DNA of 57,299 bases, counting the filler, from Sphacelaria rigidula (Eukaryota): the NCBI GenBank assembly GCA_964200075.2. It is 8 parts of 8 records of this genome, joined end to end, with 100 filler letters (N's around TTAATTAATTAA, not from the genome) between each part and the next. Parts side by side here need not be neighbours in the genome. Positions count along the whole stretch, not along the records: positions 14,351 to 21,425 come from CAXNAA020016617.1; 7 more parts are not named here. The stretch is one strand, 5' to 3'. The translations under genes and the position numbers were made by a program. A model generated the notes under the pieces. That model was not told the DNA's origin, ran no database searches, and was given only the letters and a program-made list of their open reading frames with translations. Positions 7,176 to 32,067 of the stretch are shown here, one piece after another (the first letter of the stretch is position 1; every line of letters starts with the position of its first letter).

Positions 7176-7209
7176 GGGTAGGTCGCTCGAAGACATATTT
7201 TTCATTATT

Positions 7210-7241
7210 CCACTAACACAGGGTCAACCCTGTGTTAGTGG
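7210..7241. repeat. Perfect 15-bp-arm palindrome
   Basis: CCACTAACACAGGGT-CA-ACCCTGTGTTAGTGG. Confidence 0.9.
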
Positions 7242-8415
7242 GGGTCCGGTCCCAAAAGGGTTTAATGAAGCTGTAATTCTTTGCATACCTTCGGAGCCAA
7301 GTAAGGCCATGTTATATTTATGGGTTTCGGCAATACACTCCACATCAAACTTCCACGACGAGAACAAGACCAGACAAGCACTACAAAACTCTACAACGCT
7401 TGCTCACTCAAGCTAAACGCATTTATCTGCACCGTCAATTCGCGTCCAATGTGCGTCGCATCTTGTAGTGAAATATAGGGCCAACAATCATGGGCGCTAC
7501 CTCACCCAAGACGCCCCCAAATGGCTATTTATCAAGTGTTTTCTAATGTGAAAAAAAAAACTACCACCTCCAGAGGGGGGAATGGGGGTACAAAGGGTCT
7601 CGGAGATCTTGTTTTGGGCACTCCTGTGTCATCCAGGACTTTTAGCTCCTCGATGTGAGGGGTCACATTTTCCACATTTTTGAAGAGGAAACAAGTCAAA
7701 TAACGCAATTTTTCTCGCAGCCGGCGCTGCCGATTGTTTTCCAGTTACGATCGCCGATTAACTGGAAAACAGTAGATGTACCTACTGGCGGCGCCAGCGG
7801 CCAGTTTAAACTCAACTGGCCAGAGCAGCCAGTTTACAGCCTTACCAACTGGTTGTTGGAGTTAGACGCATCACGTACCATTCACGAACACCACGGTACG
7901 CACAAGCTGGAGGCGCTACTGAAAAGGTAGCCAGAAAGATTCTGAAAGATGAGAGACGCGCTTTGATCGGAGGTCATCTTTTAGATTATTTTTGGAAACC
8001 TTCTCAGCAGCGCCTTCAGCAACGAACACGAGGATCAGAATATGGGAAGGCTTCCAACCGGAGGTTGTTGCGTCAAAGCTGGGTTAGCCTCCACTTCGGG
8101 TGCTGCTGTAGAAGGCAAGCTCGTGTCATTTTGAGAAGAAACGGATTTGACAGATCTACGGGTGTGCCAAAAAAATGATGTACGAAACCGTTGAAAAAAA
8201 CCCGACTGAGTAACGTCGCCATATGCCGGACTGTGGCTTATGCTACGGCTCAGAGTACTATTGGTTGATGTATGACATTTTCTCTCTTCATAACTTTACA
8301 CTGGCTCTAATTTGCTGGGGTTTCTCCTCTTGGCTATCTCAGTACGTTGTTGCGTCTTGAAATAAACCTTGTTGCAAAATTTCAGGCAGAGCGCCAATAA
8401 AACCGCCAAGCTGGC

Positions 8416-11400
8416 TCAGCTTGAATTCGTCCGCGATAGGTTGAAACGGAACATGCGACTCCCACCGATCCCGTAAATACTACCCTCGCGGGGACGATTA
8501 CTTCCTGATCCCAAGAACAGACCATGCTCCTCGCCCCCCCCCCCCCTGCACAGGGGTCACACACCAGTTTCCACTTTAACGTTTCGAACTTTTCACTCGG
8601 ACGATTGCAAATAGACATCTGGATCCTGGGAACGTTTCTTCCGAGTAACATGACATGAACATGATATAAATCCAACATATGGATAAAGTTGCGCCGTTAG
8701 GCGTCAACACCCCGCAGCCGGAAAAGTTTGTCCGAGAAACCTATTCGAGGGACATTTTCCGGACCCCAGTGCCGGCAACAAAACTAACCACAAAACAATT
8801 GACAAGAAATCCATCGAAAATAAAAATAAAAATAAACACGAAAGCACTGACCTGAGTTTGCCTGATGTGGCCAGCGTGAGCTCCGGTGACCGAAGCATGT
8901 TGCTGCGTAGCCGCGGAGCAGGTCCTGGTGCCCCAGGGGTAGGCACGACACCGGTTGCCTGTTGTCCAGGCCCCATAGCTTGAGCAGTGGATCCCGGCAA
9001 GACGATGCCGTTTACGGGGGTGAAGTTGCCGAAAGGCGAACCGAACATTCCCACCACCGCTGATCTCCTTCAGAGAGAGTGCAAGAGGAAAAAGAAAAGA
9101 GAAGGCAAGACGGTTTGCAATTGTGGAATTATGGCAACACTCTCCCTCGGTATATCTGAGTACTTCGGAAATACCAAACAAAAAGATAAGCGGCGTCCGT
9201 CTGTCGTGATAAAACGCAGACTTCGCATGTCTTTTGGCTAAGCCGTGTCTTATTTAGAGAAATATTTTGAGGCAAAATCTTCTCTTTGAACGTCGCTGTC
9301 AACAGAATTCACTCGACATCCCTGTCGAAGGGAAAATCCTGTCTCGATACAGGATATCGGTATGAGAACGTGACGTCGTGACAACACACGAAACACACCA
9401 GTGCGTCACCACACCGAACAGAAAGCTGTGCATCTCTGGTGTGTGGTCCAGGCTCTATAATGAGCCCAACAGCCTACGCATAGCTCCCATTTTACGTTAT
9501 GTTTTTCGACATGCTCAACGCGCTTTGGGAACATGTTGAAACAAACAATTCCATTTTTTTTCTCAACATGTTCCCGAAGCGCGTTGAGCATGGGATGTCA
9601 GACTTCAACGAATCAGAAGGACAAGAATGTGAAGAATCACAACTATTTTCAGAAGCATATTTACCTGAAAAAAAATCCTCTCGAGAAGACGGGGGGGCCT
9701 TTCTCCTGTGCTACAGGTTTCGCCCTGTACTTTACCTACTATGTTTTCGGCACATGACATTTTCCTTCTCTGAACACCCCAGGTACATTGAGAGTTGTCG
9801 GAGCACACGCATGGTGATCTCCCGATCATAATAACATGAAAACTTGGCGACATGTTGCCGCGGGTCTCGAGATACGTTCGGTGAAAGGTTTTTGAACTTC
9901 TTGGATGGCCGAGCTCGTAGTTGGTTCCGAGAATCACATATTTCGGCGACCGGATCTTTGCAGGGTTGTGTATCGGTACCGATTATATCAATAATGTGTT
10001 GCATGGTAGTTGGTGATCATCTAAATTGCATACTTGACTTCCAAGGGATCAAATATCACCGAAACGCCTACTTACGACTGAGCCGGGTGTACCGGTCCCG
10101 CGGCCGGGCGGGTGAATCTTGCTTGCCCTGCCGCCCCGGCAGCAGCAGTAGCACTTCGGTCTTCCAGTCGAGGCTTTTTGTTCGAGCTGTGACTGCGCAG
10201 CCATTCCACGACCTGGCGTCGTATCGCGAGAGACGGGGTGACCACAAGAACGACACTATGATGATTTTTGCCACGAGTGCATGCTTTCAATACGCAGTGA
10301 AAACCCGATTCTTCACCCTTTGATGACTTTTGGGGAAATGGATAAGCTAGTGATCTACTGCACGAGAAAATGGGGAGGGGGGAAGGGTCGGGGATCGAGG
10401 TACGCAGCAGTGCTACAAAGGTCGGTCCCGTTGTCGGCGATTTTTTTTTGTAAGTACACACCGAGCCCACACACTGATTCGACGTGTCGGAACATTCGAG
10501 TGACGCAGCTGTTAATCCTGCCGTGACGACAAGCTGGAAATATGTATATCTGAGAGTCACAACGCTTCAACACGGGGACATGCGGACACAGACCTCTGAA
10601 TGTCCCTCTTCCTGGGCACGAGACATTGCCTTTCCAATATCGCTGGGCATATTGTTGTCGTAGAACCACTGCACTATCTTGACATGTCCGCGTCCTGCCG
10701 CCATTTCCAGCGCCGACAAGCTGCAGCCCTCTGACCGATTCTCGTGAAGCCACTGCTCGTTGCGAAACAACATCCCCGTTAATCGGCCATGTGTGTTTTT
10801 CGAAGGGGCGTGGGGGAGTACTCATGATCATGCGTGCCATATTCATGACACCATTGACCTCGCATCCCTACCAAGTCGGGACGGAGCACGCCGGGTCATC
10901 GCCGGACCAGGCTCAACCTCAAACCACCAAGCGCGAAGCGCCGTGGCGTGCTCGGCGAGTGGCATAAAGGGTGAGCTGCATCCTGCTAAAATTGTCCAGC
11001 CCGACGCCTACTGATTATCTTGCATTTGGATGACAGCCTACAACGAGTTGCTTCATTTTCTGGTATCGCCACTTTCAGGGGCAGCCACGGCTTACACCCT
11101 GCCTCATGGGGTATCTCACCATTCAAACACCACGTAGTACGATCATCTCTATTAGGGGGGTCGGCAGCGCTAGCTAGTGCGCAGTTGTCATCATGGGAGA
11201 ATCAACAAGCACCAGACAAGCGGTAAATACACTGTGATACACAAAACACACCGACATGAATGACGACAGCGGGTGACACGAAACGCACCTTTTGCGGCGG
11301 AACTGACTCTTACATTGTCGATTATCCGTCATGTCGTTTTCATCAGGCAGAACACCACGGAATTGCGACAAATCAAGGGAAAGTAAACTCGTGAGTTTGC

Positions 11401-11756
11401 TCGCAAGTGCTGCCCCGTAACCATCGTGTTTCTTCTTTGTGGAAATACAGTTGAACTTGTCGAGGGTGCTGCACTTCGACAGCCTCATGGGTTGCGTCTG
11501 CCAGCAACCACGAAGGGGACTGGACACGATCCGATCATGACGAGGAAAAAGAGTGGAAAAAGAGAAGAAAAAAACTCCTGATGAAATGATTGCCCACCTC
11601 TACAACACTCAAGTGACCTCCTTCGGCCGCGCCGTCCATGGCATCTGTGGTGCATTCCAAATCCTTGCCGTGAAGCCACTTGACCATCTCCAGGTGTCCT
11701 GCCGCCGCAGCACGGTCCATCGCCCGCTTGCTGAACTTCAAACTTTCCCCACTTGC
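8416..11756 (-). CDS. Ankyrin-repeat protein (AMD.AA..GHL..V.WLH type), 5'-partial, five exons
   Basis: Phase-compatible GT-AG exons 11756-11598, 10752-10594, 10212-10076, 9067-8852, 8545-8416 give ...[74 protein letters not shown]...[15 protein letters not shown]..., then a Pro/Gly-rich tail. The first three exons are solid; the last two are less certain because a TAA at 10072-10074 is an alternative end. Confidence 0.85.
9510..9592. repeat. Intronic inverted repeat: 30-bp arms (one mismatch) and 23-nt loop
   Basis: Arms CATGCTCAACGCGCTTTGGGAACATGTTGA (9510-9539) and TCAACATGTTCCCGAAGCGCGTTGAGCATG (9563-9592). Confidence 0.9.
9690..10070 (+). mobile_element. Possible decayed hAT-like transposase fragment in an intron
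   Basis: [11 protein letters not shown]...[21 protein letters not shown]...[13 protein letters not shown] loosely follows the hAT order PF...E.P.F / DGW...PIIN / HTAEY; contains stops and lacks the catalytic D. Confidence 0.35.
10806..11160 (-). mobile_element. SINE-like family B copy in an ankyrin gene intron
   Basis: Reverse complement of the 32068-32637 element, ending CATGAGTACTCCCCCACGCCCC. Confidence 0.8.
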
Positions 11757-12467
11757 CTACAAAAAAAAGCCAAGGTGAGATCGGAAGAACATTAGTATAA
11801 TGCACCCCAAACCTCCGCACATGGTCTGATCAAGGTCTGGAAATGCCCCAGATATGAAGGGGAAAGAGCGCGACAAACGTACCAATAGAATTCGGTACGT
11901 TTTTCGATAATATCCACAATGCCATCTTGGGCAGTCGGCCAACTACGCGTACTTTTCGAGAAATTCTTTTCTTCACAGAGTGTGCAAAGGTTGGGATGGC
12001 TTTTGCGAGGCTCACGTTTGAAAACGTTCGACGCGTTTTCCGCCTGCGGTTCAACCAACTCCGAACTTGAAGCTGATGTCGATCCCAGGGGCATCGCTAC
12101 TGTCATGAGCTGCTGCTGCTCGTACTGTGATGAATGTGTGCGACCTTCGCGTCCACATGTGTTAATGCTCGCTGTCCGCACCTCTTAATCTAGTTTGAGC
12201 ATGACCCAAAGTTGATTGGGGCGCCTTTTGGAGCACGACTATCATGTGCAAGTGAATCCGTGGAGTCGTTCAGATGTATCGGGAGAATCACTGTCAACTA
12301 AAGCTCAAACCAACCAGATACCAGGTTAATCTTGTGAACTGACCAGTTAACCTGGCAGCCAGCTCACAAATCTTCTCATATATTCTTCTATGGACATTGC
12401 CTCCTAGAGCATATAGTTCAGTAGGCAGCAGTCTGGTGATCGCTCTCCCCTGCGGTGTAGCAGCGCC

Positions 12468-12612
12468 GCACTTTAAATGACCCCCCAGGGATCCACCCGT
12501 GGTCTCATGATAGACGTACCCGAGAAATACAAGACTGAAACACTCGCTGAAGAAAGGAAGGAACAGCCAAAAAAAAGTCGAACAGAACGACATAGTAGAC
12601 TAAGACGTAACG
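12468..12612 (-). mobile_element. Short retroposon-like repeat (family C)
   Basis: Aligns with the 30806-30977 insertion (CATGATAGACGT, GAAACACTCGCTGAAGAAA, CGAACAGAACGACAT, GACTAAGACGT). Confidence 0.7.
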
Positions 12613-14183
12613 AAGAATAATAATTATAATAATAACGTCGACAACAGCAAAGCACAGAAAGAAATGGCCGACCTAAAGCAAAAAAAAGGGGGGGAAAGTA
12701 AAGAGCAAATAAGATGAAATAAAATGATACGATGGTTAGACTGCGACCGTGAAGGGCATCTCATGCCAGGTGCCCCGCCGGTTAGGGCAGCGGAACGGAC
12801 ACAGAAGGATCGGAACTGTAAGCTTCTATTGAAAGAACAAAATATGTTCATGAGGTACCAGCGTGTCCTTGACGATACGGTACTATACTACTATCTGTAG
12901 AGTACATATCTAATTATGTGCAAAAGTGGCTGGGTCGACTGCCGTGATAAGCGTGTACGATGATGTGAACGGTTGCTGCTTCTACGCCACTAGCTGGTGG
13001 AAATTCGTGTGTGCATGTATGTGTGGTCTGTGGTACTGTCCGTGTGCGTGTCGTACCCTGTGTCTGTTGTACCGTGTACTGCGCGCGAGCTGTGCATCGG
13101 CTATCTCTTGCGCGCGGGTGGATTCAAAAATGTGTTGGGTAGTCGGACTGCCGGGTTGCTCAAACATGCCATGGAACTGGTTCTACTTTGAGGGTAGGTT
13201 CTGTAGATCTACCCGTTGGGGGCGAAATACGCCAGCCGTGCCACCAGCACACGATCGTGGGGAGTCCGGTTCCAAAGGGGTCAATGGTTGTGGCAGTGTG
13301 TTAGGGGTAGTAGATGTATCTCATACTCGAGATTCCCGGTATGTTTCACAGTGACTTACAGATAAATATATCTGGAACCTCGAGTTTGAAATACAGTACC
13401 TGTAGTAACATGTGGTCGTTGTGGCGTTCGTGGACGGCAACTGGGGGGAAAATGAGCCGAATGTGTGGGTGCAATGGGTAGAGTTGGTGCGTGAATTCCC
13501 TCCCGCGCAGTGTGTCGCGTCGGGTACAGTGTGAGAAGCGATGGCCAACGATAGGTACTTTCTGGGCCGACTGGTTGCCCAAAAAGGGAATGATTGAAAA
13601 AAATTACTACATCAAGTACACCTGGCCGACCTTTTGGCGTAGAAAGGGGAAGTGATTTCTGGAGATGAGACGTCCTTCTGCGCATGGCTGTATATCTCGC
13701 GAGTGTTATATATTTTTTCTGTTTTCTTTTTTCTCGCCCGGATGCTAAGGAGCCCCCCGATTGCTGCGCGTGAAACATTCGGAGCGACATCGGTCGGGAT
13801 TGTGTGTTTCGCTGTTTTTGCGTTAGCGTTAACTTTCGAATAAAATGTTAACGTAAAGTTAATTTTTTTTAACGTGCCACGAAACGTAACGTGAACGTGT
13901 GACGTGTAGAGCCCTGAAAAAAAAATGGAGTGTGGGTCCGAGACGTTTTTCTATAATCGGGAGACCCGCCCTACCCGCACCACTCCCTTTTATGGGGATA
14001 GATGTTCAAACTTAAATGAAAGATTCAATGAATCAGAGGCTCCTTGGTGGGGAGTCGGCGGAATCTAGCGCCAATAAAATGCAATGTTAGTAGTGAAATG
14101 CGCAGTGAAAAATGCCTGTGACTGGCTCATAGACTTGATTCCACGTGGAGTGTTCGTATACTGCAGTACATGACGTGCCGGTC

Positions 14184-14250
14184 GCCCCGGTGGCTCAGTT
14201 GGTAACCTCGTAACCTTCTGGTTGTTGAGTTGTGGGGTTCGATTCTCGGA
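14184..14250 (+). mobile_element. tRNA-derived SINE head, truncated by the contig end
   Basis: Pol III A box TGGCTCAGTTGG and B box GGTTCGATTCTC, no proper anticodon arm; related copy on the minus strand at 35876-35950. Confidence 0.7.
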
Positions 14251-14399
14251 NNNNNNNNNNNNNNNNNNNNNNNNNNNNNNNNNNNNNNNNNNNNTTAATT
14301 AATTAANNNNNNNNNNNNNNNNNNNNNNNNNNNNNNNNNNNNNNNNNNNNAAAGGTGATTCGACATGCCTAAATCCCGATTTCCTCTCAGGCCGCAAAA

Positions 14400-16020
14400 G
14401 CGCAGACCCTATCGCAGCATCACTCTGTTCAGTAGTTTTGTGAAGGAAAGATACAACAAGAGTCGCGTACAATCGATACTGAAAAATAAGAGCAGCAGCG
14501 TGCTGATTTGGCAGGAGCTCAGGTCAGCGACAGCGGCTGGCTTATGAACAACAGTGCGCCTTTGTGCACTGGTGTTTTGTACAAACCTGTAGGAGAAGAC
14601 CTCTTTAGCAGAAGGAAAGGGGGGCAACAAGATCAAGTACACGAGCCAACGATGGCTTGGCGCGTTGATCGTGCCTGACTGAACGAATCACCGAGAAATT
14701 CGCCACGTGCAGTAGGAACTGATGCCGTGCAACCTTGTGCGGGCGATGTCCAAATTGACAGCACGGTGAAAGTAGCAAGCAGTGCGCGTTGATCCCACGT
14801 AGCACAAGATGTACAGTCAAACACCACAGCAAGTTGCAAGTTAAAGGGCATGAATACTCTTTACCGAGGGACACACGGGCAGAAGCTTTGAGAGCTGCTG
14901 ACTATCGAAGCGATAGATTCGACTTATAACCGTCCTACCGTCGACGCCAATGTAATGAAGAGCAAGGGGTAATATAATGCAAGGACACAGGTTGTAGCCC
15001 AAGGTACAGGCTCACAAGGCCAGCGGACAACAGTCAGGCTGGCACAGCTCTGCACACTACTGAACACAGCTCAGCAAAATGTCAGACGGGTTCTCACGCA
15101 ATAGGTTCTTCACTCCTTCTGGCTATCTTGATTCTAACTCCAGTACCCAATCAATCAATCCAACCCAAACCAGCCAATACCTCTCACCGATGGTTAGACT
15201 TCCTTTTGCTGGCTAACAGAAGGGGAGCAGTTGGTAGTGATTGATGGTGCGAGCTTTGGTCGTGGGAACAGCGACCAAAGCCGGTATCATCCCTGTAGTT
15301 ATACAGGTTCACATTCGTACCCGACCAACTCGGACCTGTAGTCTTGGCTACCGAGATTCCCAAATTACCGAAAGCCAGACTTCGACAACGGGTCTGAAGC
15401 GGCATGACAACAGGCTAGTATGCGTCTTCATGACACTTGATGTTGCGCACGCTGTACTGCAAGATTAGCGTGAGGGTTTCTCTGTTTTTTTGTTTGGAAG
15501 ATTGATATCTCGGAGTTTGAAAAATAGGGCATGTGCACTTGATGATGCGCACGCTGTGCTGCAAGATGAGCGTGAGAGTCCTGATTTTGTACTATGCTGC
15601 AGAGTTGGATGCATGTCTGAACCGATACTCGGTGTGCACTGCATTGCTTGCACCATGGGAAAGCGCAAAACGTGACAGGTTGTTTGCAAATATCCAAGTA
15701 CGGATATCATTATTATTGTAGATTCGAGAGAGCTTGGCTTTGGATCTTGGAACGTTGATCGGGATCTTTGAGCGCAAGCAGTTTAATGAGGTACAGAAAA
15801 TTTTGAAGTACTGTAACTTTTCGAAAGAAGGGGCGCACATATGATTCTGTTATATATTGTCTATGGGGGCAGGTGCGATTTTTCTCCTAAAGAAAGTACC
15901 TGTTCAGTGATGACGTGAGTAGGTTTGAGAGACATCCCCGCTCACCGGGTGAATCGTTGTCTAGAATGGTTTCCCGTGAGCCTACTAATGAAACGACCGC
16001 GCAAGGGGGGTGTTGATATG
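14400..16020 (+). mobile_element. Highly decayed Ty1/copia relic
   Basis: Motif remnants in copia order: TPQQ (integrase, ~14820), KG*YNARTQVVAQG (~YKARLVAQG, ~14960-15005), LDVAHAVLQ (~RPDIA.AV, ~15440, locally duplicated), then polypurine AAGGGGGG plus TGTTG at ~16003-16015 (candidate PPT/LTR start). Confidence 0.5.
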
Positions 16021-16628
16021 AGCAGCCTTTTCGGTGTGGTCTACAGTACTGACAAGCCACGGTACAGAGGTACCTGTCTTCACGGGTTATGACCGTTACA
16101 TTCGGTGGGATTTGATACCATAGTAGGTGTGTGCCTTGTACTCACGTACGCAATGTTTGGGAGCTTGGCTGACCACGATATTGGTTAGCCACACGAGTTC
16201 ACTTCGTTCTCTTTCTTCTTTTCCCTCCTTGGCTTGCTTAGTCAAGCTGTGCAATACTACTCTTCTACAACAACATGACCGGCTAACCCGTGTCCTTTGA
16301 TCGCCTTCATCAGTCGTGTCTAGCCGTCCCTGTTTACGGATCACGCATCAAGAAACAGGGGTGTGCGATGACTCGTACAATTACGGTACTCTATTTTAGT
16401 TCTTGAACGGCACCCTCCACTGCCGAGACAAAAGTAATGTAAAGTAACTGGACGAGGTCGATCTTTCCCAGGCACGGCGTAGCTTTTTGCGGCGTCCTCA
16501 CGGATCTGTAGTGTATGGGACAAGTGAGGTTACAAACAGATCACTCGGAAGTAGAACATTCCACCACACGAGCAGCGCGTGTAGTCTTGTTCACATCGCC
16601 GCGCCAGCTCACGTAATCACGCCTTTTC

Positions 16629-19600
16629 CTACCAAAGTTCCTGAATCAAGGAGCTGACACTTGCGATCATCGTCGGGTTAAGATTGAAGGATAAGCGCAG
16701 CAGCCCGAGACTCTTCTCGTGAAAATCTTGCACCAATAGCTGAGGCCTCGATTCCAGAAACTGAATGATGCCATCTTCCGACTCGTCCATGCCCAACTGT
16801 CTGCGCGCTGCTGTCCTCGCGTTGCCGCTGCTGCCGCTGCTGCCGTTGATGCTACTGCACGCGTGAGACGGAATATGCCAAGAAACGTTCTCTAGGGGTT
16901 ACCTACTGTGTTGATTGTCAAATGTCAACCAAACTGTACTACCGTCCTCGAGTCACCGCCATCAACTACCCCGTGACTATGGTGCCTCCTGCGACAAGTG
17001 AGAATCAACAAAAGGTTTTCATGACGTCAATTTTATGTATTCTCGATGATTGGATTGTTCACCAATCGGGAGGGACTACGTGTAAGGTTAGACTATCGAA
17101 ACAACTATGATGGAGGGGGGGGGGGCATCTTTCCAAATCCCCTACATTATACATTGCCCGAACAGCATCACTGAGCAATGCGCCAGGTGTCGAGTGATGC
17201 TACGGTAGGGATTGCACGTTTCTAGCAAAAATGTTTCTCTGGGTCTTCGACGGGTCATTTTGATAATATGCATCATTTTTCTTGAAAAAGGCTGAAAATG
17301 ATGCCGATTCACGAAAAGGCCCTTGCGTGCTTCCCCGTGTCCGGCCCCCAGGGATGTGGGTTGCACAGTAGTAAACCCCATACAGTTTGGCTCCTACAAA
17401 GCGAGACCCGAAAACAAAACGTGCAACCCCTGTCGTAGTATTGCTCTACCGGACGTGCTCTAAACCAGGCGACTACTTCCGCCCCTTTCGGCTCTTCAAA
17501 AATAGCTTCAAGATTGTCACAGTAGCCTTCTCCTTGTAAGCTAAAAACGTTTCAAGAGGTGCCTTCCATCCCATCCGCACCCACGCCTTGGCGTTTCAGT
17601 ACTTACTTGGTCTTGGCGACCAACTGCTCGATGCTTGCTTTCACTCTCGTTTCGTACACGTTTGCGAGTGTTTCTTCAGGACGTGTTGAGTGCGGTATGC
17701 TGTGTGCGATGAGGCACGACGCTCGAAAAGGCCTGCACCACAACGATCGTGTGAAGAAGGTTGGGTTGACAACGCGAGATCAAATAATAGAGAAGGGTTG
17801 CATGTTAACCGCAAGGAGACACCTTGCTCGCGCTTGCGACAAACTACCAGTACACACAATGTCGTCATCCCCATACTACGGTACATCTGCAAATGCACGA
17901 GCGATGGCCTGGGGAGGCCTACTTGTCGGGACAACATTGAAGTCAACACTTTGAAAGCTATGTCATGATTTTTCAGTCGTTTCAGAGTCATCCTACGATA
18001 GGGGGGGGGGGGGGGGGGTTTTTGGTTAACTTTTTTCCCGAAATCCCAGGTCAAATTGTTTTTTAAAGGGGCAAAAATCNNNNNNNNNNGTTTTCATTTG
18101 TTATAAGTAAAATAAGTATTATTACGTTTGTGGGAGGGGGGGGGGGGGGGGGGTATTTTGGTCAACTTCTTGCACGAAATCCCAGGTCAAATTGTTCTTG
18201 AAAGGAGCAACGGTTGCTCGAACGAGCTTACAATATATATATATATATATATATATAACGTTCGTTCATACGGATTGACACCGTTTTGAACCAAACACTA
18301 GCGCACCGCGAGTGTGGCAGGCCGTATGACACACTTTTTAGCATCTTTTTTCGTGCCCCCCCTCCCATCGTAGGATGAATTTTAATACGTCCTATGCTCT
18401 ATGTTGCCATGAATAGATGCATATGATATATAAACTCACAGCCATGATGAGTCGCGCCCCGAGTCGTTTGGCGTCCACCGCATGAGCTACGTCAGTGCTA
18501 CACAGGATTCTGGTCCTTCCGGGAGGTTAATTCTACATTCGGGTGGTGTGCCCTTACTGAACGGAAGATTAGGAATGTCGAGTCTCATACCAGAACTCCG
18601 AAATGAAGGTCCATCGAAGTAGCTTCCTTGCGTGTTCTTCACTGAAACTCGGGGTGATCTTGATCCCTAGCGAGTGCTGAAGGCTGTATCTGCTTCAGCA
18701 GGCAGCCGGTCCCAGATGATGCGGACGAGAAACATGTATCGTTAGTCACACAGAATACCGGGGACGTGCACTGTGAGCAGCTAGTGGCGAATGTCGTAAT
18801 CTGGCGAGTGAATGCTTGCCGTAACAAGGATTTCGATTGATGATACCATAACATGGTGTACCCCCCTACAAAGAGGATGAACCTCATCTCTCGGTGCAGC
18901 AGCAGAGACACTGAGCTGTCTGCTGTTAACCGCAAGAGATGTACAAAAACTGAATTTTCGAAGTGCTTTTGTACGAGATAAGACTTGAAGAAGTGTGGAA
19001 TCTATCCACAGAGTACCTTGACGAAGCTTTGTCGACGAGAGCGGAGAAACCCCGTTAACGTTCGGACGTTTCTTGGGCGCAACGTTCCGTCCCAACACGC
19101 GGACGTGTGCACCATTAATAACTTCAATCAATCGATATATATATATATATATTATGTAGTCTCATGCCCCCAGACGATTTGTTGCACCCGAAATATTCCT
19201 TATGAACTTCATGACGTCCAGAACGTTGTTCGCAATGGTATAAAACGCATGAACCAGCTGCTTCCCTTCCCTTCCCCGAAAACCGATTGTAGCCGCGCTC
19301 TCCTCTTGACGACGCCTGAATTTGTACCGGATCAATCAATTCGCAAGAACCAACCAGTCAATCAACCGATGGCTCTTCTGTTTATCGATCTTAGCCCGCA
19401 CTTGGTACACAAACTTTTGTCCTTGTTGTCTTTACATTGAAACCCGTTTTGATCTCTGCAGAGTGCCCTCTAACTTCCGCACTGGGCATCTGATGCGGCC
19501 GCCTTCCGAGGTCACAGGCCGACTACCCAAATTGGATATAAGCAAACCAAATATCAAAATAAAATAGGAACCGCGATATCCATAGATATTTAACTTGCTA

Positions 19601-19910
19601 CACACACATACACACACATACACATACGTCCCGAAACGCGATGGCACAAGCCCGGTTATTCAGACCTCTCCCCGCGTGATCCTCCTCCTGTTACGAGTAT
19701 AATCTCGACGAAATCTCACTCACATGTTGCAGACGCGCTTAATCTTGCGAGGAGTAGTGGCGACAGCGTCCACGAGGGCTCGAAACTCCTCGATCTCGTG
19801 AGGTGCGTACCTTCGACGTGATGGAGGGATGTAGGCATGCTGTGCACAGGTGCTGGCGTCGGGCAGCTCGAAGCTGCGACGGGCGGGAGTAGCACCAAAC
19901 CCTGCAGATC
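16629..19910 (-). CDS. KAP-family P-loop NTPase (Kidins220/NKPD1-like), C-terminal four exons
   Basis: Exons 19910-19724, 18689-18591, 17732-17607, 16854-16629 (CAG acceptors; GTGAGT, GTATGA, GTAAGT donors; three phase-2 joins) splice into a stop-free 211-aa frame: ...EIEEFRALVDAVATTPRKIKRVCNIYSL...KLLRWTFISEFWPFRASCLI...ETLANVYE...LGMDESEDGIIQFLESRPQLLVQDF...LLRLSFNLNPTMIASV...W*. This matches the remembered KAP C-terminal motif series PR..KR..N / W....E.WP.R / D.....FL / NL[DN]P. Walker A/B are not on this contig. Confidence 0.8.
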
Positions 19911-20046
19911 CTGCATCAAAATACGGTTTAGGCAGTAGTTTTCCTTACAGTTTTGTTTTGGATAGTTAGCCTTTGACCACGGAAGGCGTCTGCATCAGAT
20001 CTACAGTACAGAGTACTGCCCAGATATCGGAACGGTTGATATGGAA

Positions 20047-20123
20047 ACAACAACGACAACGACAACGACAACAACAACAACAACGACAACAACGACAACA
20101 ACAACAACAACAACAGCAACAGC

Positions 20124-20154
<31 letters not shown>

Positions 20155-20182
20155 GCAACGACAACAACGACAACAACGACAA
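20047..20182. repeat. (CAA/CAG/CGA)n microsatellite
   Basis: Direct; source of spurious poly-Q/L/V ORFs. Confidence 0.95.
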
Positions 20183-20619
20183 GTGGTTGTTCAGGGGTGG
20201 GGTGAGTGTCGTGTATGACGTGGGGTGTATTCCGATACAAGATTGTCGGTATATGGAAGAGAAACTCAACGCTGACGGATGTTCGTATTTCCTAGTCTCA
20301 ATAAATACGCTGACGTTTGGTTACTTTGACAGTTGCGTCATCTTAGTCAGCGCACCGCCGATCACTGATCACTATATCTATCTATATCACGCACATCCTG
20401 GACACTTTACGGCCTTTATTCCAATAGCAGTAGAAACTTCTGCAATAGATGCCAACATTGTCGTCGGTAATGGAGATCGATCGTCAAGTTTCTCCGTCTA
20501 TTGTCGTCGCCAATATCTCTTGATAGACCCCTTTCCCACACTACTGCCCTGGCAATAGTCTATCGTGGTCGTAAACCGAAAACTATTACCGCCGACCGAG
20601 TATATTGATAGAAATCTTC

Positions 20620-20787
20620 CCAACTTTATTGATGACGGCAATGGCTATCGATAAACTGGGTGCCAAATCTTTTGATGGCGATAATGGCTAATAGTAGATT
20701 GTGTACCAAGTCTGTTGATGGCGACAATGGCCATTGATAGATCCCTTGGGGGTTAGTTAAAATGCAACAATCAATCAATCAATCAAG
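20620..20787 (+). repeat. Three degenerate ~44-bp units followed by the 3' end of a family-C retroposon with a (CAAT)n tail
   Basis: TTGATG[AG]CG..AATGGC occurs three times; then GATCCCTTGGGGGTTAGTTAAAATGCAACAATCAATCAATCAATC, the reverse complement of the 30806-30855 end. Confidence 0.6.
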
Positions 20788-20943
20788 ATTACGCACAGCA
20801 TATTATGTCGATGATAGCAACGACTATCAATAGATAAAACCATGATCTCCTGTAATGCACAATGCCTATTGACCGATATCCCCAGTCGCCAACTAGCAAT
20901 ACAATGATACACTATTTGTGACACATATACTCTGTTGAAGTAC

Positions 20944-21118
20944 GGTAGAGAGGCCGTCGTTGGACATGCGGTGAGATATGATGATACTGCTTGTGAAAAA
21001 ATGACGTCACGATCCTCCAGATTCGCGATGGTTGTATGTTGTAGGAATCCGCGACATGTATGGGCAAACGTTTACGAGATTTGTTGTTGTGGTGGTGGTG
21101 ATACTCAGGGTTCTCCTT
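20944..21118 (-). CDS. Possible additional upstream exon of the KAP NTPase gene
   Basis: CTAAC branch point, pyrimidine tract and CAG acceptor at 21119; open frame KENPEYHHHHNNKSRKRLP...; phase-1 donor is weak (C|GTACTT, or C|GTAAAC earlier). Confidence 0.3.
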
Positions 21119-21525
21119 CTGATGGACAAAAGGGTTAGAGTACTTTCGTGTTTGAGTGATATGTACTTTTACACTGGACAATAGAATGTGATTGCCGCCA
21201 CAATATCCCTGATGATGTGACTATCAATGTACATTCTCAGCGACAATCGACTGGCATCACTGTCTATCGATAGCCATTGAAGGCAACAAGAGATTCGAGA
21301 CAATGAACGAAACAATATCATTGCCGTGACAATGGAGTGGCCGAGTTCTAAAGCGACATATAACAGCCGATTTTAAATTTTGGGGTTCATACAAAATATG
21401 GGGTTGAAGTGGCATTTCTCTCTTGNNNNNNNNNNNNNNNNNNNNNNNNNNNNNNNNNNNNNNNNNNNNTTAATTAATTAANNNNNNNNNNNNNNNNNNN
21501 NNNNNNNNNNNNNNNNNNNNNNNNN

Positions 21526-24500
21526 TAACTCCCGGGCGACGCACGCGTGCGTATAAAGCATAATCGCCTACTCCGAGATTCGGCAATTCCAGCCCCGACG
21601 GAGACCCCTCACGTCTACGCGCACGTTCAGCTGCAACACGCCCCTGCACTTGAACGTGGAAACGTTCTTGCAAGTCCGAAACTCCTTGCAATGCACTCTT
21701 AATTTGAACATCGTCTAGAATTTCACACTTTCATTCCCCCACCGACGATGACGCCGGCACTGAGAAAGACGTCCGAGGGGCACCGCCAAACATCACGTGA
21801 TACGGCGTACTATCGTACCGACGGCGATTTGCTGTATTAAGCGCCCATTGCACAGCGGGCAACCCACCCTGTCACTTCTCGACGCTGCTCGAGAAGAATG
21901 GAGCGAAGAGCACGAGCTACATCCTTTATCATGCGTTCGCACGTACCGTTAGACCACGGAGAATACGCTACCGCAAACCGGTGATCAACGCGCAAAGCCT
22001 CTCGCAACCGAGCCAAGATCGCATTTTTGAAATGCGTGTCGGTATCACTCACCCACACACGAGGCATCCCCAGAGGTTTGCACCAATTTATTTAGCAAAG
22101 ACGCAGCAGTCGATTCAGCAGTCCACACTGCTACTGGTTCTAGAGCGACAAAGTTGCTCAAATCATCCATGATTACCAAAACATATCGGAACCCGGCATC
22201 CTCCGACAAATCTTGGGAAGCTAGCGTGTCACTCTCGCCCACGTACAAGAAGTCAAAATGAACGGCTTCATCCGGCGTGGTCCCATGGGCCGTTTCGCCG
22301 AGCGGGCGGTGAACAACATCGGCCGCCCTCGAGTCAGCACAGTGAAGACACTGGCGGACAAATTTGCGCACATGAGTTTCTATCCCCTGCCAGACACAAA
22401 ACTCTTGCAAGCGTACGAGCGTCGCAGCCACACCACGATACCCAGCGTCGCGTATGTGCGCGCAAGTCATCAGACGTACCTGCAGCTGCTTGTCAGAACT
22501 CGGAATCCACAAAACGTTTCGGTCACGCACATGCACATGAAACATATCTTCATTGTCCAAAACAGCAGTACCAACGTCCGTCTCGAAATGTTGCACATCC
22601 GCATCTTCGGCCCCAAGGTCTCTTCGTTGCGCTTGGCGGACAACAGATTTGGACGGCATCGACTCATCAGGTTTGCACGGACCATACACAGCCACAGCGC
22701 GCGCAGGCAAAGTGGGGATATTTACCCAGCACGACCGCAAGTCACCCCACGCGTTCCGCTCACCCGAGATATGACAAATCGTGTACCGGTACTGACCTAA
22801 AACACCTTTCCACCCCTCCAATCGCTGTGCCAACGCCTTCGACACAAACGTCACGCATGCCTGCGGTTCGAAAATGTATGCTAGATTTCGGTGATCCGTG
22901 AAAATGTGTACGCCATTCCACAATAGATGCTCAAGACGACGAAAAGTGCTCACGATAGCGAAATTTTCCTCGTCAATAGCTGCCCAACGCGTCTGTGAAC
23001 CCCTGAAATTACCGCTCAGAAAAGCCCGCGGTTCATACGTCATGTCTTCAACCGGCAACCGTTGTTGTTGCATTGCTGCATCAGGCACCTGCGTTACGAA
23101 ACTACCCCAATGGCACTCAAATGCATCCGGAAACATTGACACCTGGCAATCAGGACGAGGATGGAACAGCGTCACGGTATGAGCCAACAGATCCTTCGCT
23201 GCCGCCCACGCCTTCAGCCTGCCCTCCGTCCACGATGCAGTCTTATTCTGAAACGCCATATCCGGACTGGACCACCCCGCCTGCAAATTCCGTAACACCA
23301 ACCCGAGCGCCAAAAGAGCCGCCATGCACAATGCCAACCAACTCGACCTCACTGGATCGTACCGCCGCGGCTTCGCCTTCACCGCGGACGCCCCAGGTTT
23401 TGGCTGAACACGCATGGGCTCCACGCGCGCAGGGGGATCACCCCGCAGCGCACGATGAAACGCGTTGACGCGGCAATGCAATATGCCGCGCAGGCGCTCC
23501 GCTTTTGAGACGCTGAGATTTGTCGCCCCAGCATCCGTCATGCTCTCCTCCAGCGCGACTTTCCGAGCGGACTCCTCTTCCGCCGGAGTAATAAATATCT
23601 CCGGGCCGCGCTCTACCAAGCGTTCCACCGCCGCATCCCGCTCCTCGGTCACCTGCCCTCCATCCTCCTGAAAAACATCCCCCGACAAGCTCACGCGACG
23701 ACTGCCCAAAACGGCGGGTGTCTCCAAGCGTGGACCAGGCGGAGACATCCGCGTCTTCATGGAGTCCCACAACCGCCGAGCGTGGACTCTAATATCCGGA
23801 ACCATCGGCAACTCCAGAGGAATAACGACATCCGACCCTGGCATGATCTCAAACGAGATCGGAGGCAACTGCACCGGCCCCCAGGAAGTAATCAAAGTCA
23901 GCTGCAACGGGACAGTACGCTCCGTGACATAAACATGCTGACCCGACGCGGTGACAGCCTGCCGCGCCCCAAGCGAAAACGGAGTGCGCAGCGGCACACC
24001 CGGGAGAGGACGCTCCAACATCTCTACAATCTGTACCGACAGACTCACACGACCCGTCCAGTGGGCGCCAGAATACCACTCAGCCTCTACCGCAATGGCT
24101 CCCCGCGCCCGGTGATTCGGGAGATACAACTCTGCAGGAATATATTTGGCTTGATACTCGACCGGTACCTGCTCCGCCAACTGATTGCTCGTGATCCTTA
24201 TTTGGCGCCATGGCTGCGCGTGCGGCGCAGGCATAAATGCCCCCGCTGGGGGCACCGGCACCGCCGGCGGGTACGAAGCCCCGCCCGCAGAACCAAATTG
24301 CTGAAATCCGTCCGGCTCCGCAGCAGGCGTCTCGCCTTGCTCTGCTGCCGGCGGCGCCGACACCGAGCCCGAGACTAGAGAGATCGGTCCCACCTGCACC
24401 GCCCGTTGTGGAGCAGCAGCCCTTGCGGCTGAGCCGGACCCAGAACCGGAACCCTGCTGACGCCGCTGCCCCTGCTGCTACTGCTGTTGGGAACTCGACT

Positions 24501-26331
24501 GTACAACTCCTCCGCTGGATGATCCGCCTCCGCGACCACCCCGATTACCCTTCCCTCCTTTGTGGCGAGGACGCGCGACACTCATCTGTCCAGACTCCCC
24601 CTCAGAAGGCGTTGGGCACTTCCGTGCGATGTTACCTACCTGGCCACACTGATAGCAAGTAATATTGGCGGCGGCACTGCCTGCGGATTTCAATCTGCGG
24701 TTACGCGAGCTCGAAGACTACGGCGACGAAGTGGATGATTTTCCGAATAAATCAACTCGCCGCCATACCTGAGATTCAGCCATCACGGTATCCATAACTA
24801 AAAACGGGTTTGACTCCCAGTTTGTTTCGTGCTGTAACTGCACAAGCACGGCCTGCTTCAATTCCGCCGGTGCCAGACCATCCGCCATCGCTTTCGTGAC
24901 CACCGCAGCGGGCCCTGGGCGGAATTTCCCATCGGAGGAACAATAAACCATCTCGGCGTTGGGATTTTCCGAAAAATACGTCTCCAACTTACCCATCATG
25001 GGCTCCACCCTCTCACACATTGTCCTCCCCTTGTGGTTCATTGCGACAGCCCTCGCCACGGCCGCGGACGCCTGAGTAAGCTTTACCTCCGCGCCTGCCG
25101 CATGCCCTGCGTGCTTCTTTATCGCTGCGGCCAACTGCAGCGGCGTTATGGTATGCTTTCCCTGGAACCTTCTCGCGAAGACGCCTCGGAGGGGGTAGGC
25201 ACAAGTTGCGCCATAGAAACCACCTGATGTCTTACCGCACCCCCCCGCATTCGCATGCTCCACCCTCTTCTTGTATTCCAAGTATTTCGTGTAGAACGAA
25301 CAAGAAGCACCCTCAGAATACAAATTCCCGTAACTGGGCGATCGCAACTCTTCCCTCAGAACGACTGGGGTTACAGTCGCCTCCGCTGGCTCTATTACCG
25401 GTACCTCGGTAGTCGACAGTCTCAACTTACAATTCACACCTGCCTTCTTCGCCGCTCCACACAGCCCTGGGGTCCTATAAGCACCCGCTGCACGCAACTC
25501 CAGCAGGTCTCCAGTCTGGATCAATCACGGGCCAGCCGTCTTTGCAGCTACCTCAGCTTGAAAACTCCTCACGCGTACGTGAAGCTATATGTCCGAAGCT
25601 CTCACAAGCTGTCCAGACTCCTGCCTGCTAAAACATTTCCAGCAGTCTCCTGACGATAGCACGACTAGCACGACTAGCACGACTAGCCCTAATATCGATA
25701 TTGTGACGCCAGCAGGTTGCTTGTACTGCAGCGTCTAAATGCTGTTGAGGGGCTCCCCAGTTCCACTGGCCTCAAGGTCTCGGTTTTCAGCCTTCACAAC
25801 ACCTTATCATTCCCGGAGTAAACAGCTGCAGCCCCGTACCGTCAGGCCTGGGCTACACAGCAAGGGTCAACATCCACAGGATGCCCTTGTCCCCTGGTCA
25901 TCATCCAGGATCGACTATATACTCAACGTGACGGCGTGATTTCGTCATAGTTCTCTGAACGTATCGCCTTGTAGACGCTATATACGCTTCACACACGTTG
26001 CAACGCATCACCACCGCCTCCTCCCCCAACACGGGAGCCAAGCCGCCCCGCCGTACGCGGAGCCAAACTGAAGGATCTTCTTGTTTTCGTGGACCCGATG
26101 CTGATTCTTCTTCAGCCTTACGGGAACCAGCCTCGAGCGCTGCTCTATCCATCGGTTTTAAGGAACAACCCGTGTAGTTCTCATCGCCCCCTCCCAGCTC
26201 CGATTCCGATCATGGCTCGGATTCTCGTACCCTTCCGACCCTCCCTCATCATCCCATCCGTGATTACCCCTCACAGACACGCTCTGTGCCCCAACCCTCA
26301 ACGACCCCGGTGGCACCCGTCGAACGTCACA
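21526..26331 (-). mobile_element. Ty3/gypsy LTR retrotransposon, defective (RT core deleted), 3' end cut by the contig end
   Basis: gag-like ORF 25524-24718; zinc knuckle CYQCGQVGNIARKC (24693-24478); pol 24399-22045 with protease region, RT N-terminus, RNase H (FPDAFECHWG...IFTDHRNL), integrase (H..G...CLHC, VHFDFL, IMDDLS), continuing 22067-21837 (WVSD...NGTCER). Candidate 5' LTR TGTGACG(26331)...CGTCACG(25927) is uncertain. Confidence 0.92.
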
Positions 26332-28186: not shown

Positions 28187-28600
28187 CCCCCAACCCTGTT
28201 GTAGGGGCGGACCCCCAATGGGCTTGGCTTCGGTTGGCGATGACGCTACAAAACACACCACTCACCACGTAAGCTAGGCAACCAGGTGCTCCGTCTCGAA
28301 AGGGATGCGTGGTCAGTGGTCAAACGACTAAGGCAAGCAACAAATGAGTACCCCCAACCCTGTTGTAGGGGCGGACCCCCGACGGGGTTGGCGTCGGTTG
28401 GCAATGACGCTGTAAAACACACCACTCACCACGTAAGCTGGGCAACCAGGTTACCGCTTTTGTTTTGCGCTCCGGCGTTTTTGTTTTGCGGTAACCACGA
28501 TGATAGTCGAGCTAGATCATGCGGTGCGGCGTGAGAGATCCTCAACTCCGCACAATGGGAATGATTGTTCCACGTAGTGTTTAAATGGTGAGGCACCCAT
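28187..28600 (+). mobile_element. SINE-like family B 5' part, with a ~63-nt LINE tail inserted between ~101-bp direct repeats
   Basis: 28187-28287 is repeated at 28351-28451 (about 8 differences), flanking the LINE 3'-end piece 28288-28350. Confidence 0.85.
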
Positions 28601-28829
28601 NNNNNNNNNNNNNNNNNNNNNNNNNNNNNNNNNNNNNNNNNNNNTTAATTAATTAANNNNNNNNNNNNNNNNNNNNNNNNNNNNNNNNNNNNNNNNNNNN
28701 AAAAAAGAGGTAAAAAAGACACCTTCCACAAAAACCCCCCCCCCCAAAAAAAAAAAAGCCCCCCCCCCCCCCCAAAAAAAAAAACAGCCCAAAAATGTCA
28801 CGGAAAAAAAAGACAGACAGCGCCTGATA

Positions 28830-31800
28830 TTTGGGTTCAGGCTGCATCAAGCGCCTCATATGGGCGACAGTGATGAGAACGAACCCAAGCGTGGGAATTC
28901 CCAGCTGCTTGTTGTGCTCGGCTTATTCCACATTTCGATTTCCGTGGAGATTTTGCCTCCCCAGACCGGGCACTTTTGGGGGGGGGGGCTATCGGAGAAA
29001 GTGCCAAAGTGTGGGGGAATCGTTGGCTAAGCTTTAGGCAGCGGAGGTCTAATCTGGAGCATTCGTGGAGTAGCGACCCATGGTGAGCCATACACGGAGC
29101 GGGAGGAAGTGATGGTGGACGAGACATCTCTATGTGTGAGTATGGCCTGGTGTTATGCAAGCTGTCCTTGAACCGTTACACGGTGAAAATGACCTCCCTG
29201 GAGGAAAGTAACCAGTACAGCAATGGGGCAAGAAGATAGAAGATACGATCGTGGGACGCCTGGGTGGTTTACCATGAAGATAGCCTGACACAAACATGGG
29301 GTACTTGTGTCAAGGGAATTAAGCTTGGCTTCAGGCTAGGAACCCGTGTTGGAGGTACTATTTAGTGTCGGTGAGCCAGGAAAGGGACTGAAAGGCACCA
29401 GATTCCCTACAAGTACTAGGACCGGGATATCCCAGTACCTTGACTTCATCCCACTTCGAAAGTTCAACCAAACAAGCTGGAGATACCCTCGAAAGAGATC
29501 GAGAGAGAGACGGTAAGTAAGGGTGGGTGGAAAAGTAAAGAGTGGACAGGTAAATGTAGATAGGGATAAAAGGGATAAGGGGAGACGGGCAGGAGAGACA
29601 GACAGGGGGATAGCCACACTACGGGCATAGAACGGTAAAATGGTTTGTAGGTCGAGGGGGAAAAGGCGAGTAGTAGCAGAACACTACAGAGCACTAGGGA
29701 CACCACCAACTAACTAGAGGTTCGACGCGAAATTCGAGGAAGAGATCAACGCGTGGGCAGAGGTAAATATAGAGGCATTCAAACCGGAGAAACGTGTCTC
29801 AACAGAATTGCAGAGAGAGTTCACAAAAGAGGAAGTGAAGGAGTGCGTAGCTCAACTCAAGAAAGAAGGGCAGCAGGGGCACACGGAATATTGGATGTAT
29901 TTCGAAAATACGTGGGAGAGGGAATGATTTTCACGATGGTTACGCTGTGTATTTGGATCTTGGACGACGACTACATACCCAAGAGGTGAAGAGAAGGAGT
30001 AGTAGTCGACCTTTTCAAGAAAGGAAACAAGGCTGACCCAGGGAGTTATGGAGGGATGGCGCTCATAAGCATCGTAGGAAGGAAATCCTGTAAGATTCCG
30101 AACGATAGAGTGGGAACGATGCTAGAGGAAGAAGAAAACGTCAGCGAGGGGCAAGCAGGTTTTCGGCTGAAACGTAGCTGCGGAGACCATGCGTACACAT
30201 TAGGTAAGATTATCCAAGGTAGGAAAGACGCCAGGTTGACAACGTGCGGTTTCTTTCTAGACGTAAAAAAGGCCTATGGCATAGTATAGAGAAAGGGGCT
30301 GTGGAAAAAGTCGTGGGGAACTGCGATCAGAGGGAAAATGTAGAGAATGGTGAAGAAGATGACAGAATGCGCCAAACGTGCCATGATTCTAGACGGGTAA
30401 ATATCGAAATATTTTTATGTATCACAAGGAGTTGCACAAGGATGTACGTTATCACCCACTTTATTCAAAGTATCTGTCGATGACCTGATAATAGCAATAG
30501 AGGCAGCGAAGCAAGGAGTCAGGGTGGGGCAACATACGGTATCGAGATTGACGTCCGCGGATGATTTCGTGGGGATATCAGAAACAACAGAAGAACTGCT
30601 GAAGCAGATAGAGAAGGCGCTAGAGTACACTAGGAAATAGAGAGTGGCAGCCCATGTGAAAAAAAATGCGCGGTACTTGCATGTAACGAAGATAGAGAAA
30701 AATCGATGGAGTTCAAATGGAAGCGCGGAAAAGAGGAATTGCCGATCGTAGAGCAACATACATACCTTGGCGTAGAGACCTCAGAAGACTGTTCTTGGAA
30801 TGCACAAATTGATTGATTGATCAATTGTGACACTTTAACTGATCCTCTAGGGGATCTAGCCGCGGGCGCATGATAGACGTGCCCAATAAAACCAAAACCG
30901 AAACACTCGCTGAAGAAAAAAAAAACAGCAAAAATTCGAACAGAACGACATCGTGGACTAAGACGTGAAAAAAAAATCATGGATGAAGTAATAGAAAAGG
31001 GTAAGGCACAGATAGGCAGGATAGACGTGATCGTACGATATTCGCACCTAGATACTAGGATTAACAGATGTATTCTGATGAATGTGATCGTACCGAAGCT
31101 AGAACATGCAGGAGGAGTATGGGAGGGGAACGCGAAGTTGGGGAACATTTTGAAAACAGCGCAGATGACAGCAGCTAAGAAAATACTTGGATGTTTGAAA
31201 ATGACGGGTGATACAGCACTGGGAGCAGAGTTGGGATTGTACCCACTTGAAGCAAATAGAGACACGAAAAAAATTGAAATAGAAACATAGCGTACAGAAC
31301 ATGCAGAGGAAGAGATTGCCAGCCATAATTGATAGGACCGTATGGAAGAAAGTGGCGAAAGGGCAGGCTGGAATAAGGTGGGATAGGGTAGTCGAGAAAG
31401 CATGGAAGGAGATAGGAGGAAACAAAGGCGAGATACTGTTTATAGGTGATTGCGAGGGGTACAAGGCAAAAGCAAGAGGCATGATGAAAATAAGGGGGGG
31501 GGGAATCGCTGAGACGGAAAGTAGACGGAGAAGAACACCTGAAGATTTGCGGGGAGATGAGAGAGTGGGTGGGGATGAAAGCATATCTGCATGGCCCAAT
31601 GGACTCCGCGAGAAAATTCAAGCTGAGATTTCGGGTGGGGGAGGTGGACCTGCTAGAAAGATGAAAGAGGTGTACCAGTAATCGAGAGGAGGAGGAAGCA
31701 GATGCACAGAAATTTCCCCTGTGGCAAAGCAATTGACAGCAAAACTCATATAATGGTAGAAAGTGTTGGCGGGAGACATGTGGCAAGTAAATGGAGGTGA

Positions 31801-32055: not shown

Positions 32056-32067
32056 AATCACCCCACC

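Follow-up and report, generated by a model that had tools for sequence, protein, structure and literature searches.

Results

Four spliced exons on the minus strand

The stretch of DNA analyzed here (the window; 57,299 nucleotides [nt], filler included, from assembly GCA_964200075.2 of the brown alga Sphacelaria rigidula) contains, between positions 16629 and 19910, four short minus-strand exons that are a genuine piece of a spliced gene. Judged by sequence comparison, the best explanation of these exons is that they represent the 3′-terminal exons of a brown-algal LRR-KAP gene, i.e., one that would combine leucine-rich repeats (LRRs) with a P-loop NTPase of the KAP family. The exons (19910–19724, 18689–18591, 17732–17607, and 16854–16629; 187, 99, 126, and 226 nt, or 638 nt in sum) join in phase: read from the third base of the join, they yield 211 amino acids (aa) without interruption, closed by a single TAG at 16631–16629, and the remaining two frames of the same join contain four and five stops per 212 codons. 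All three introns (19723–18690, 18590–17733, and 17606–16855, measuring 1034, 858, and 752 nt, in a span, 16855–19723, that also contains exons 2 and 3) are of the GT-AG type, with donors GTGAGT, GTATGA, and GTAAGT and acceptors GAAGCAG, GGTGCAG, and CGTGCAG. A first-pass annotation of this DNA had described a stop-free C-terminus of this length, with motifs built across the splice junctions, and both observations are reproduced in the translation (TPRKIKRVCN/IYSL across the first junction and SEFW/PFRAS across the second, slashes marking the splice sites). The GC content of the exons is 0.55 (0.64 at third codon positions [GC3]), versus 0.46 to 0.48 for the introns.

Exon 1 is preceded by an acceptor that ends in ...TTTTGATGCAG; its first two nucleotides complete a glycine codon, after which it encodes SAGFG...HEIEEFRALVDAVATTPRKIKRVCN and runs into the donor GTGAGT. 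Exon 2 encodes (I)YSLQHSLGIKITPSFSEEHARKLLRWTFISEFW, exon 3 encodes PFRASCLIAHS...TLANVYETRVKASIEQLVAKT(N) ahead of its donor GTAAGT, and exon 4 encodes ...ARRQLGMDESEDGIIQFLESRPQLLVQDFHEKSLGLLRLSFNLNPTMIASVSSLIQELW followed by the terminal TAG. Because the joined 211 aa include no methionine ahead of exon 4, further exons are required upstream. Two parts of the model are less firmly placed than the rest: the junction between exons 3 and 4 sits in a variable linker, such that homology cannot fix its position, and the length of intron 2 is uncertain because of a 10-N assembly gap at 18080–18089. This gap is flanked by poly-C runs and by a duplicated stretch of ~45 nt (18000–18190), and the source assembly probably collapsed, or failed to resolve, a repeat in this region.

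Relationship to brown-algal KAP proteins

Exon 1 (61 aa) is 80% identical over its whole length to a protein of S. rigidula (P0001; E value, 1.8e-23), the sole protein with an E value of ≤0.01 among 75 candidates when exon 1 was searched against longer proteins. P0001 is a partial product of 159 aa that includes the Walker B stretch VSIDNLDRC and matches the Pfam family KAP_NTPase over profile positions 157 to 284 of 293 (E value, 7.7e-19). Searched in turn for longer relatives, P0001 retrieved five proteins with E values of ≤0.001 among 692 candidates: P0002 (from EukProt, 752 aa), P0003 (Ectocarpus sp. 8, 919 aa), P0004 (Ectocarpus sp. 12, 1027 aa), P0005 (Scytosiphon promiscuus, 783 aa), and P0006, a bacterial-looking KAP protein of 1037 aa. 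The first four, which are full-length and of algal type, all combine LRR families with KAP_NTPase (E values for the latter, 1.6e-33 to 4.2e-37).

We scanned the window with the algal homologues by tblastn (E value of ≤1) and, in six frames and with filters off, with a profile built from the five algal proteins P0001 to P0005 (profile A1, 919 nodes). The tblastn alignments of three full-length homologues end at 19723, directly after exon 1, and run from 18688 to 18590 in exon 2, which are the proposed junctions. Exon 2 is covered over this range by P0002, P0003, and P0004 at 45 to 55% identity, and its open reading frame (ORF) alone is recovered by the profile with an E value of 3.3e-8. Exon 3 is matched by one of the three homologues (P0004, 17731–17645; tblastn E value, 0.044) and is weak when scanned on its own with the profile (E value, 0.55), yet it falls in order within the joined alignment. 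Exon 4 aligns in tblastn from 16820–16814 to 16632 or 16641, with 46 to 51% identity to the C-termini of P0002, P0003, and P0004; it has an E value of 1.4e-19 against the profile and is 64% and 62% identical to the proteins P0007 and P0008, respectively.

When the four exons are joined, the resulting tail matches profile A1 with 196 bits (E value, 5e-62), collinearly over nodes 721 to 913 of 919. Of the 76 columns that do not vary among P0002, P0003, and P0004, it preserves 51, and its identity to these three proteins is 36 to 40%, versus 40 to 58% for the three among themselves. Motifs shared with the relatives in the same order are TPRK.KRV.N.Y, LLRW...EFWPF, ARR.LG..ES, and LLR.SFNLNP.

Most of the tail lies past the domain that defines the family: the last ~20 residues of exon 1 make up the final part of the KAP_NTPase domain, and ~150 of the 211 aa lie beyond it. 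The end of exon 1 coincides with profile position 284 of 293, where the Pfam match of P0001 stops, such that the window can be expected to cover no more than roughly the closing 20 positions of KAP_NTPase. The family call of the first-pass annotation, which had been made from motifs rather than from a search, consequently holds through homologues only, namely, the Pfam match of P0001 and the joint presence of LRRs and KAP_NTPase in P0002 to P0005. With relatives that carry KAP_NTPase in Sphacelaria, Ectocarpus, and Scytosiphon, its proposal of a spliced KAP-family gene piece in a brown alga is likewise upheld, and the motif it had relied on, TPRK.KR..N, is the conserved C-terminal motif of the KAP domain, bacterial KAP proteins included. 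In its more general form, (T/N)PR..KR..N, this motif is present in the window as TPRKIKRVCN at the end of exon 1 and also in the algal proteins, in P0006, and in the bacterial defense protein QatA. As far as homology can tell, assigning the exons to the KAP superfamily is correct, and their more precise placement is in a brown-algal LRR-KAP family.

Domain architecture of the full-length relatives

The N-terminus of the full-length relatives consists of plant-type LRRs with a cap-like stretch and has no signal-peptide-like start. The LRRs are followed by Walker A (AQWGAGKSS in all four full-length homologues), a hydrophobic stretch that is weaker and confined to some members, the motif FDAWL(F/Y)ADS, two strongly hydrophobic helices, Walker B (VVSIDNLDRC or VVCVDNLDRC in all five algal proteins that cover it), the motif EYLDKIIH.PF, a variable and often acidic linker, and finally the tail. 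The two helices have Kyte-Doolittle values of 2.1 to 2.5 and, in each of the four full-length algal proteins, stand between Walker A and Walker B; Aravind et al. reportedly defined the KAP family in 2004 by membrane helices that interrupt its P-loop domain. Where the first-pass annotation expected a Walker B of the form DDLDR, the homologues read DNLDR instead. This D-N variant of the usual D-D occurs in all five algal proteins and in both QatA proteins encoded at two bacterial loci considered below (L002 and L003), whereas P0006 and the protein of a further locus (L004) have D-D.

An AlphaFold2 model of P0002, built from a 10-sequence alignment, has a mean predicted local distance difference test (pLDDT) score of 63, with the LRRs and the P-loop core being confident. 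Its tail is all-helical, with pLDDT values of 67 to 80 for residues 589 to 646 and of <50 thereafter. A Foldseek search of this model against the PDB returned LRR ectodomains only, as did a search of PDB sequences with profile A1; P0001 matched nothing there at an E value of ≤1. The LRRs also dominate protein searches with P0002, in which the 149 listed matches other than the query itself cover residues 1 to 119 (LRRs) only.

Upstream sequence and the limits of the block

The window is composed of eight blocks of 7,075 nt (7,074 nt in the last), between which stand identical 100-nt linkers of the form [44N]TTAATTAATTAA[44N] (7076–7175, 14251–14350, 21426–21525, 28601–28700, 35776–35875, 42951–43050, and 50126–50225). 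The 12-mer TTAATTAATTAA places stop codons in all six frames. At six of the seven junctions, the block edge is also the precise start or end of a repeat copy, and no copy continues on the far side of a linker; for example, the copy cut at 28600 does not go on after 28701, regardless of whether the linker is treated as inserted or as masking 100 nt. As such, features said to span linkers, or to be neighbors across them, are unsafe.

The four exons lie in the block at 14351–21425. Because the blocks are not shown to be neighbors, only the 1,515 nt between exon 1 and the upstream end of this block are informative (19911–21425 on the minus strand; GC content, 0.43), and this remainder contains no family exon by tblastn or by profile. 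The linker at 21426–21525 closes the block, such that the gypsy-type pol sequence beyond 21525 need not be a genomic neighbor of the exons, and a search for long terminal repeats (LTRs) and other repeats upstream did not tie it to them. For the same reason, we rejected a truncation deduced from 37 kb of retroelement-rich “upstream” sequence: the window is a chain of separate blocks.

By tblastn and profile, the whole window is devoid of Walker A (G/A.WG.GKS), which may lie outside the block, as well as of Walker B (hhhhD[DN]LDR) and of the membrane helices that separate the two; LRRs were found neither by these scans nor on the ORFs of the window searched against Pfam. The Pfam searches covered 148, 149, and 141 stop-to-stop ORFs and recovered no KAP or LRR family, their matches being confined to transposon domains, kinase exons, and ankyrin exons. 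A weak KAP-like match at 11197–11295 on the minus strand, between two ankyrin exons, to the FGKGAVRATRVRH stretch of the family, was taken as noise (tblastn E value, 0.15; profile E value, 0.97). The first-pass annotation had called the gene intact; with only the tail in the window, with Walker A, Walker B, and the helical hairpin all missing from it, and with a block that stops 1,515 nt upstream, this call is not supported.

How core exons of this family look can be seen in a sequence of 2,958 nt (L001) filed under a Verrucomicrobiales metagenome-assembled genome (MAG). It contains six intron-separated exons with 38 to 78% identity to P0002 (55 to 78% for five of the six), and because it shows the core split into exons of 40 to 140 aa, such exons would be easily detected. 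L001 includes VVSIDNLDRC as well as a Walker A interrupted by an intron (GAGK/SS), and it looks like a eukaryotic, brown-alga-like contig that was binned into a bacterial MAG.

Comparison with bacterial KAP defense proteins

The PADLOC models for QatA, PifA, and PDC-S20 match all five algal proteins. QatA (models PDLC02210 and PDLC02209) is the best of these for four of the five, with E values of 1e-17 to 7e-24, and PifA matches the four full-length algal proteins with E values of 4e-11 to 7e-16 and the partial P0001 with 1.6e-7. Complete QatABCD operons are present at L002 (3995–8610) and L003 (4055–8693), and their QatA proteins have exactly the algal Walker B, VVSIDNLDRC, a closeness that is partly a selection effect because the two loci were found through a Walker B peptide pattern. 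QatA thus shares with the algal tail and its relatives the (N/T)PR..KR..N motif and, at L002 and L003, the D-N form of Walker B; it differs from the algal proteins in having no LRRs and in operating together with QatB, QatC, and QatD from an operon. No ORF resembling QatB, QatC, or QatD was found in the Pfam scans of the window, although operon membership is not applicable to a spliced eukaryotic gene.

PifA (encoded by the F plasmid and responsible for phage T7 exclusion), PDC-S20, and the Enterococcus protein EF_KAP resemble the algal relatives in combining a KAP P-loop domain with membrane helices, but they have other flanking domains, lack LRRs, and are encoded by single prokaryotic genes. 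In the account given in 10.1101/2025.10.07.681051, defense by EF_KAP needs both Walker B and an uncharacterized C-terminal region. As a lead only, the nearest named clusters in the ESM Atlas were all bacterial KAP or YobI NTPases, and the top matches of the tail itself were unnamed short bacterial clusters (0.94).

Alternative explanations

We consider it fairly probable that the four exons come from a complete gene, the 5′ part of which lies beyond the 7,075-nt block. Several results weigh against this reading or against the identity and mechanism attached to it. Nodes 1 to 720 of profile A1, which comprise the LRRs, Walker A, the hairpin, and Walker B, had no match in the window, and the upstream intron that would be needed exceeds 1,515 nt, versus 752 to 1034 nt for the introns seen. 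Extended upstream, the frame of exon 1 meets a TAA at 19947–19945 and a further stop at 19968–19966. Over the 15 codons that lead up to the acceptor, there is a faint resemblance to the part of P0001 just ahead of its match to exon 1 (4 of 15 identical; BLOSUM62 score, 17), which would fit a decayed, formerly continuous exon and is a hint of decay, no more. The protein collection searched contained no identical protein model, and none of the exons taken singly matched any Pfam family at an E value of ≤0.01 (for the ORF of exon 1, relaxing the threshold to ≤1 added a noise match only). Aligned to QatA with hhalign, the tail matches in the TPRK motif alone (E value, 0.014; probability, 3%), and no KAP structure was found by sequence in the PDB, leaving the mechanism to rest on analogy.

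Part of this evidence would also suit a truncated relic, in which an LRR-KAP gene has been reduced to its 3′ end, a rearrangement or a repeat-mediated deletion having removed the LRR and NTPase exons, and in which the four exons are a young pseudogene or a nontranslated remnant. Such a relic, which we regard as rather unlikely though well short of negligible, would account for 1,515 nt without a family exon beside introns of 752 to 1034 nt, for in-frame stops, through one of which the 15-codon resemblance to P0001 runs, for the missing methionine, and for a protein collection with no gene model bearing these exons; in addition, an (AAC)n microsatellite (20046–20182) and a 43-nt tandem repeat (20629–20742) lie directly upstream, in sequence of low GC content. 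The exons themselves argue otherwise: 211 codons are open across all four, the six splice dinucleotides are intact, GC3 is still of the coding type, and the family-invariant columns retained in the tail go with a divergence that does not exceed that between Ectocarpus paralogues. Nor do the upstream features weigh heavily, since introns of >1.5 kb are not unusual and the score of the 15-codon resemblance, whose offset was picked after the alignment, is reached by 36 of 112,388 15-mers in the window and leaves a gain of only about +4 once the gap cost is deducted.

The first-pass annotation had likened the gene to the animal proteins Kidins220 and NKPD1. An animal-type signaling scaffold of the Kidins220/ARMS or NKPD1 kind would belong, through the homologues, to the same Pfam family (PF07693), and ankyrin-repeat exons do occur elsewhere in the window (10570–10821 and 11538–11756, minus strand; Ank_5, 3.3e-5, and Ank_4, 1.5e-5). 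These exons, however, are not part of the KAP gene, because they are in a different block (7176–14250, preceding that of the KAP exons) and 3′ of its stop codon. All four full-length algal relatives have LRRs and none has ankyrin repeats, a SAM domain, or other features of Kidins220; moreover, the best nonalgal matches are bacterial, albeit in a comparison set without animal KAP sequences. Domain content, by which the likeness was judged, does not support it, and we hold an animal-type protein to be very improbable. That the open frames arose by chance, with no gene at all, can practically be dismissed: although single exons lack a Pfam match, this explanation is refuted by the profile score of the join, by the match of exon 1 to P0001 at 80% identity, and by alignments that end at GT/AG sites.

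Other elements in the window

Two Ty3/gypsy-type elements (21526–25524 and 51005–55657, both on the minus strand) are collinear with each other, with a zf-CCHC gag followed by RT_RNaseH, Integrase_H2C2, and rve, and are ~50 to 60% identical in pol. The former is cut by the linker at 21526, and the repeat search found no LTR pair for either. There are also fragments of a copia-type element (RVT_2, 50312–50911, minus strand; E value, 5.7e-23) and of a non-LTR-like element (RVT_1, 30401–30637, plus strand). Protein kinase exons at 34779–35066 and 35335–35634 (minus strand) match positions 226 to 263 (E value, 4e-4) and 127 to 204 (E value, 2.7e-22) of Pkinase, respectively; this gene (34779–35653) is cut at the block edge at 35775, and the Pfam scan found no N-lobe beyond it. 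A dispersed repeat of ~300 to 640 nt, with copies 70 to 89% identical, is present in five of the eight blocks (366–656, 10805–11147, 28290–28600, 31994–32636, 35713–35775, and 40550–41180), which suggests a single genome as the source of the blocks, and a 443-nt stretch at 38507–38949 matches its own reverse complement at 89%, as would a long palindrome or a foldback element.

Discussion

Eukaryotic KAP NTPases are known mainly from animals, and those of bacteria have increasingly been linked to antiphage defense, as with QatA, PifA, and EF_KAP. The proteins closest to the locus described here are neither: they are brown-algal proteins with LRRs and a KAP P-loop domain from Ectocarpus sp. 8, Ectocarpus sp. 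12, S. promiscuus, and S. rigidula, with which it has a collinear C-terminus. What sets the locus apart from them is its extent, in that LRRs, Walker A and Walker B, and the hairpin are present there, whereas the window has the last 211 aa only. Kidins220/ARMS and NKPD1 are related to these proteins by name, as members of the same Pfam family, and differ from them in having ankyrin repeats where the LRRs stand.

Protein databases and a single supplementary table already record the LRR-KAP architecture, such that the locus adds a partial member to it. In Supplementary Table 2 of Zambounis et al., 2011 (PMC3341825), the Ectocarpus gene Esi0236_0019 is entered as a “Hypothetical leucine rich repeat protein” with IPR001611 (LRR) and IPR011646 (KAP P-loop), grouped with genes that have runs of phase-0 exons. 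The main text of that paper makes no mention of KAP, P-loop, or NTPase, and our literature search found no paper that discusses a brown-algal LRR-KAP family. The same three terms are missing from the main text of the Phaeoexplorer preprint, which names ROCO and NB-ARC-TPR only; its supplements may list the orthogroup.

For the locus itself, the best explanation of the coding content is that the exons supply TPRKIKRVCN, the final conserved motif of the KAP P-loop domain, together with ~150 aa of all-helical tail (marked by EFWPF, ARRxLGMDESD, and LLRLSFNLNP). The LRRs and the NTPase core would then lie upstream of the block, past an intron of >1.5 kb. The complete protein would be anchored in the membrane by the hairpin, with its LRRs and NTPase facing the cytosol; the LRRs may bind a ligand and so act as the sensor, and the KAP NTPase may serve as a nucleotide-dependent switch. 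The tail could function as a lid and as a module for output or assembly, and its basic TPRKxKR helix is probably placed beside the nucleotide site. By analogy, this scheme would follow the logic of receptors of the nucleotide-binding LRR (NLR) type and of bacterial KAP defense proteins such as QatA and PifA.

The LRR-ROCO and NB-ARC-TPR proteins, which are candidate immune receptors of brown algae (PMC3341825, PMC11378527), resemble LRR-KAP in pairing a repeat sensor with a P-loop switch, and the plant-like LRR type is common to this comparison set and to LRR-KAP. The latter differs in that its switch is a KAP NTPase rather than a ROC GTPase or an NB-ARC domain and in that this NTPase domain is membrane-embedded. 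As a tentative proposal, about which we have considerable doubt, LRR-KAP might constitute a lineage-wide, membrane-anchored family of brown algae that would join LRR-ROCO and NB-ARC-TPR as a third class of intracellular, NLR-like immune receptors. It would be drawn from a common stock with QatA and PifA and have the helical tail as its membrane output module.

A practical lesson of the locus is that tail exons such as these are too short for screens based on ORFs or on Pfam. If the proposal is true, it would provide another case in which a multicellular eukaryote has put a bacterial defense module to new use, coupled to a repeat sensor, and it would add a candidate receptor class to what is still a thin picture of algal immunity.

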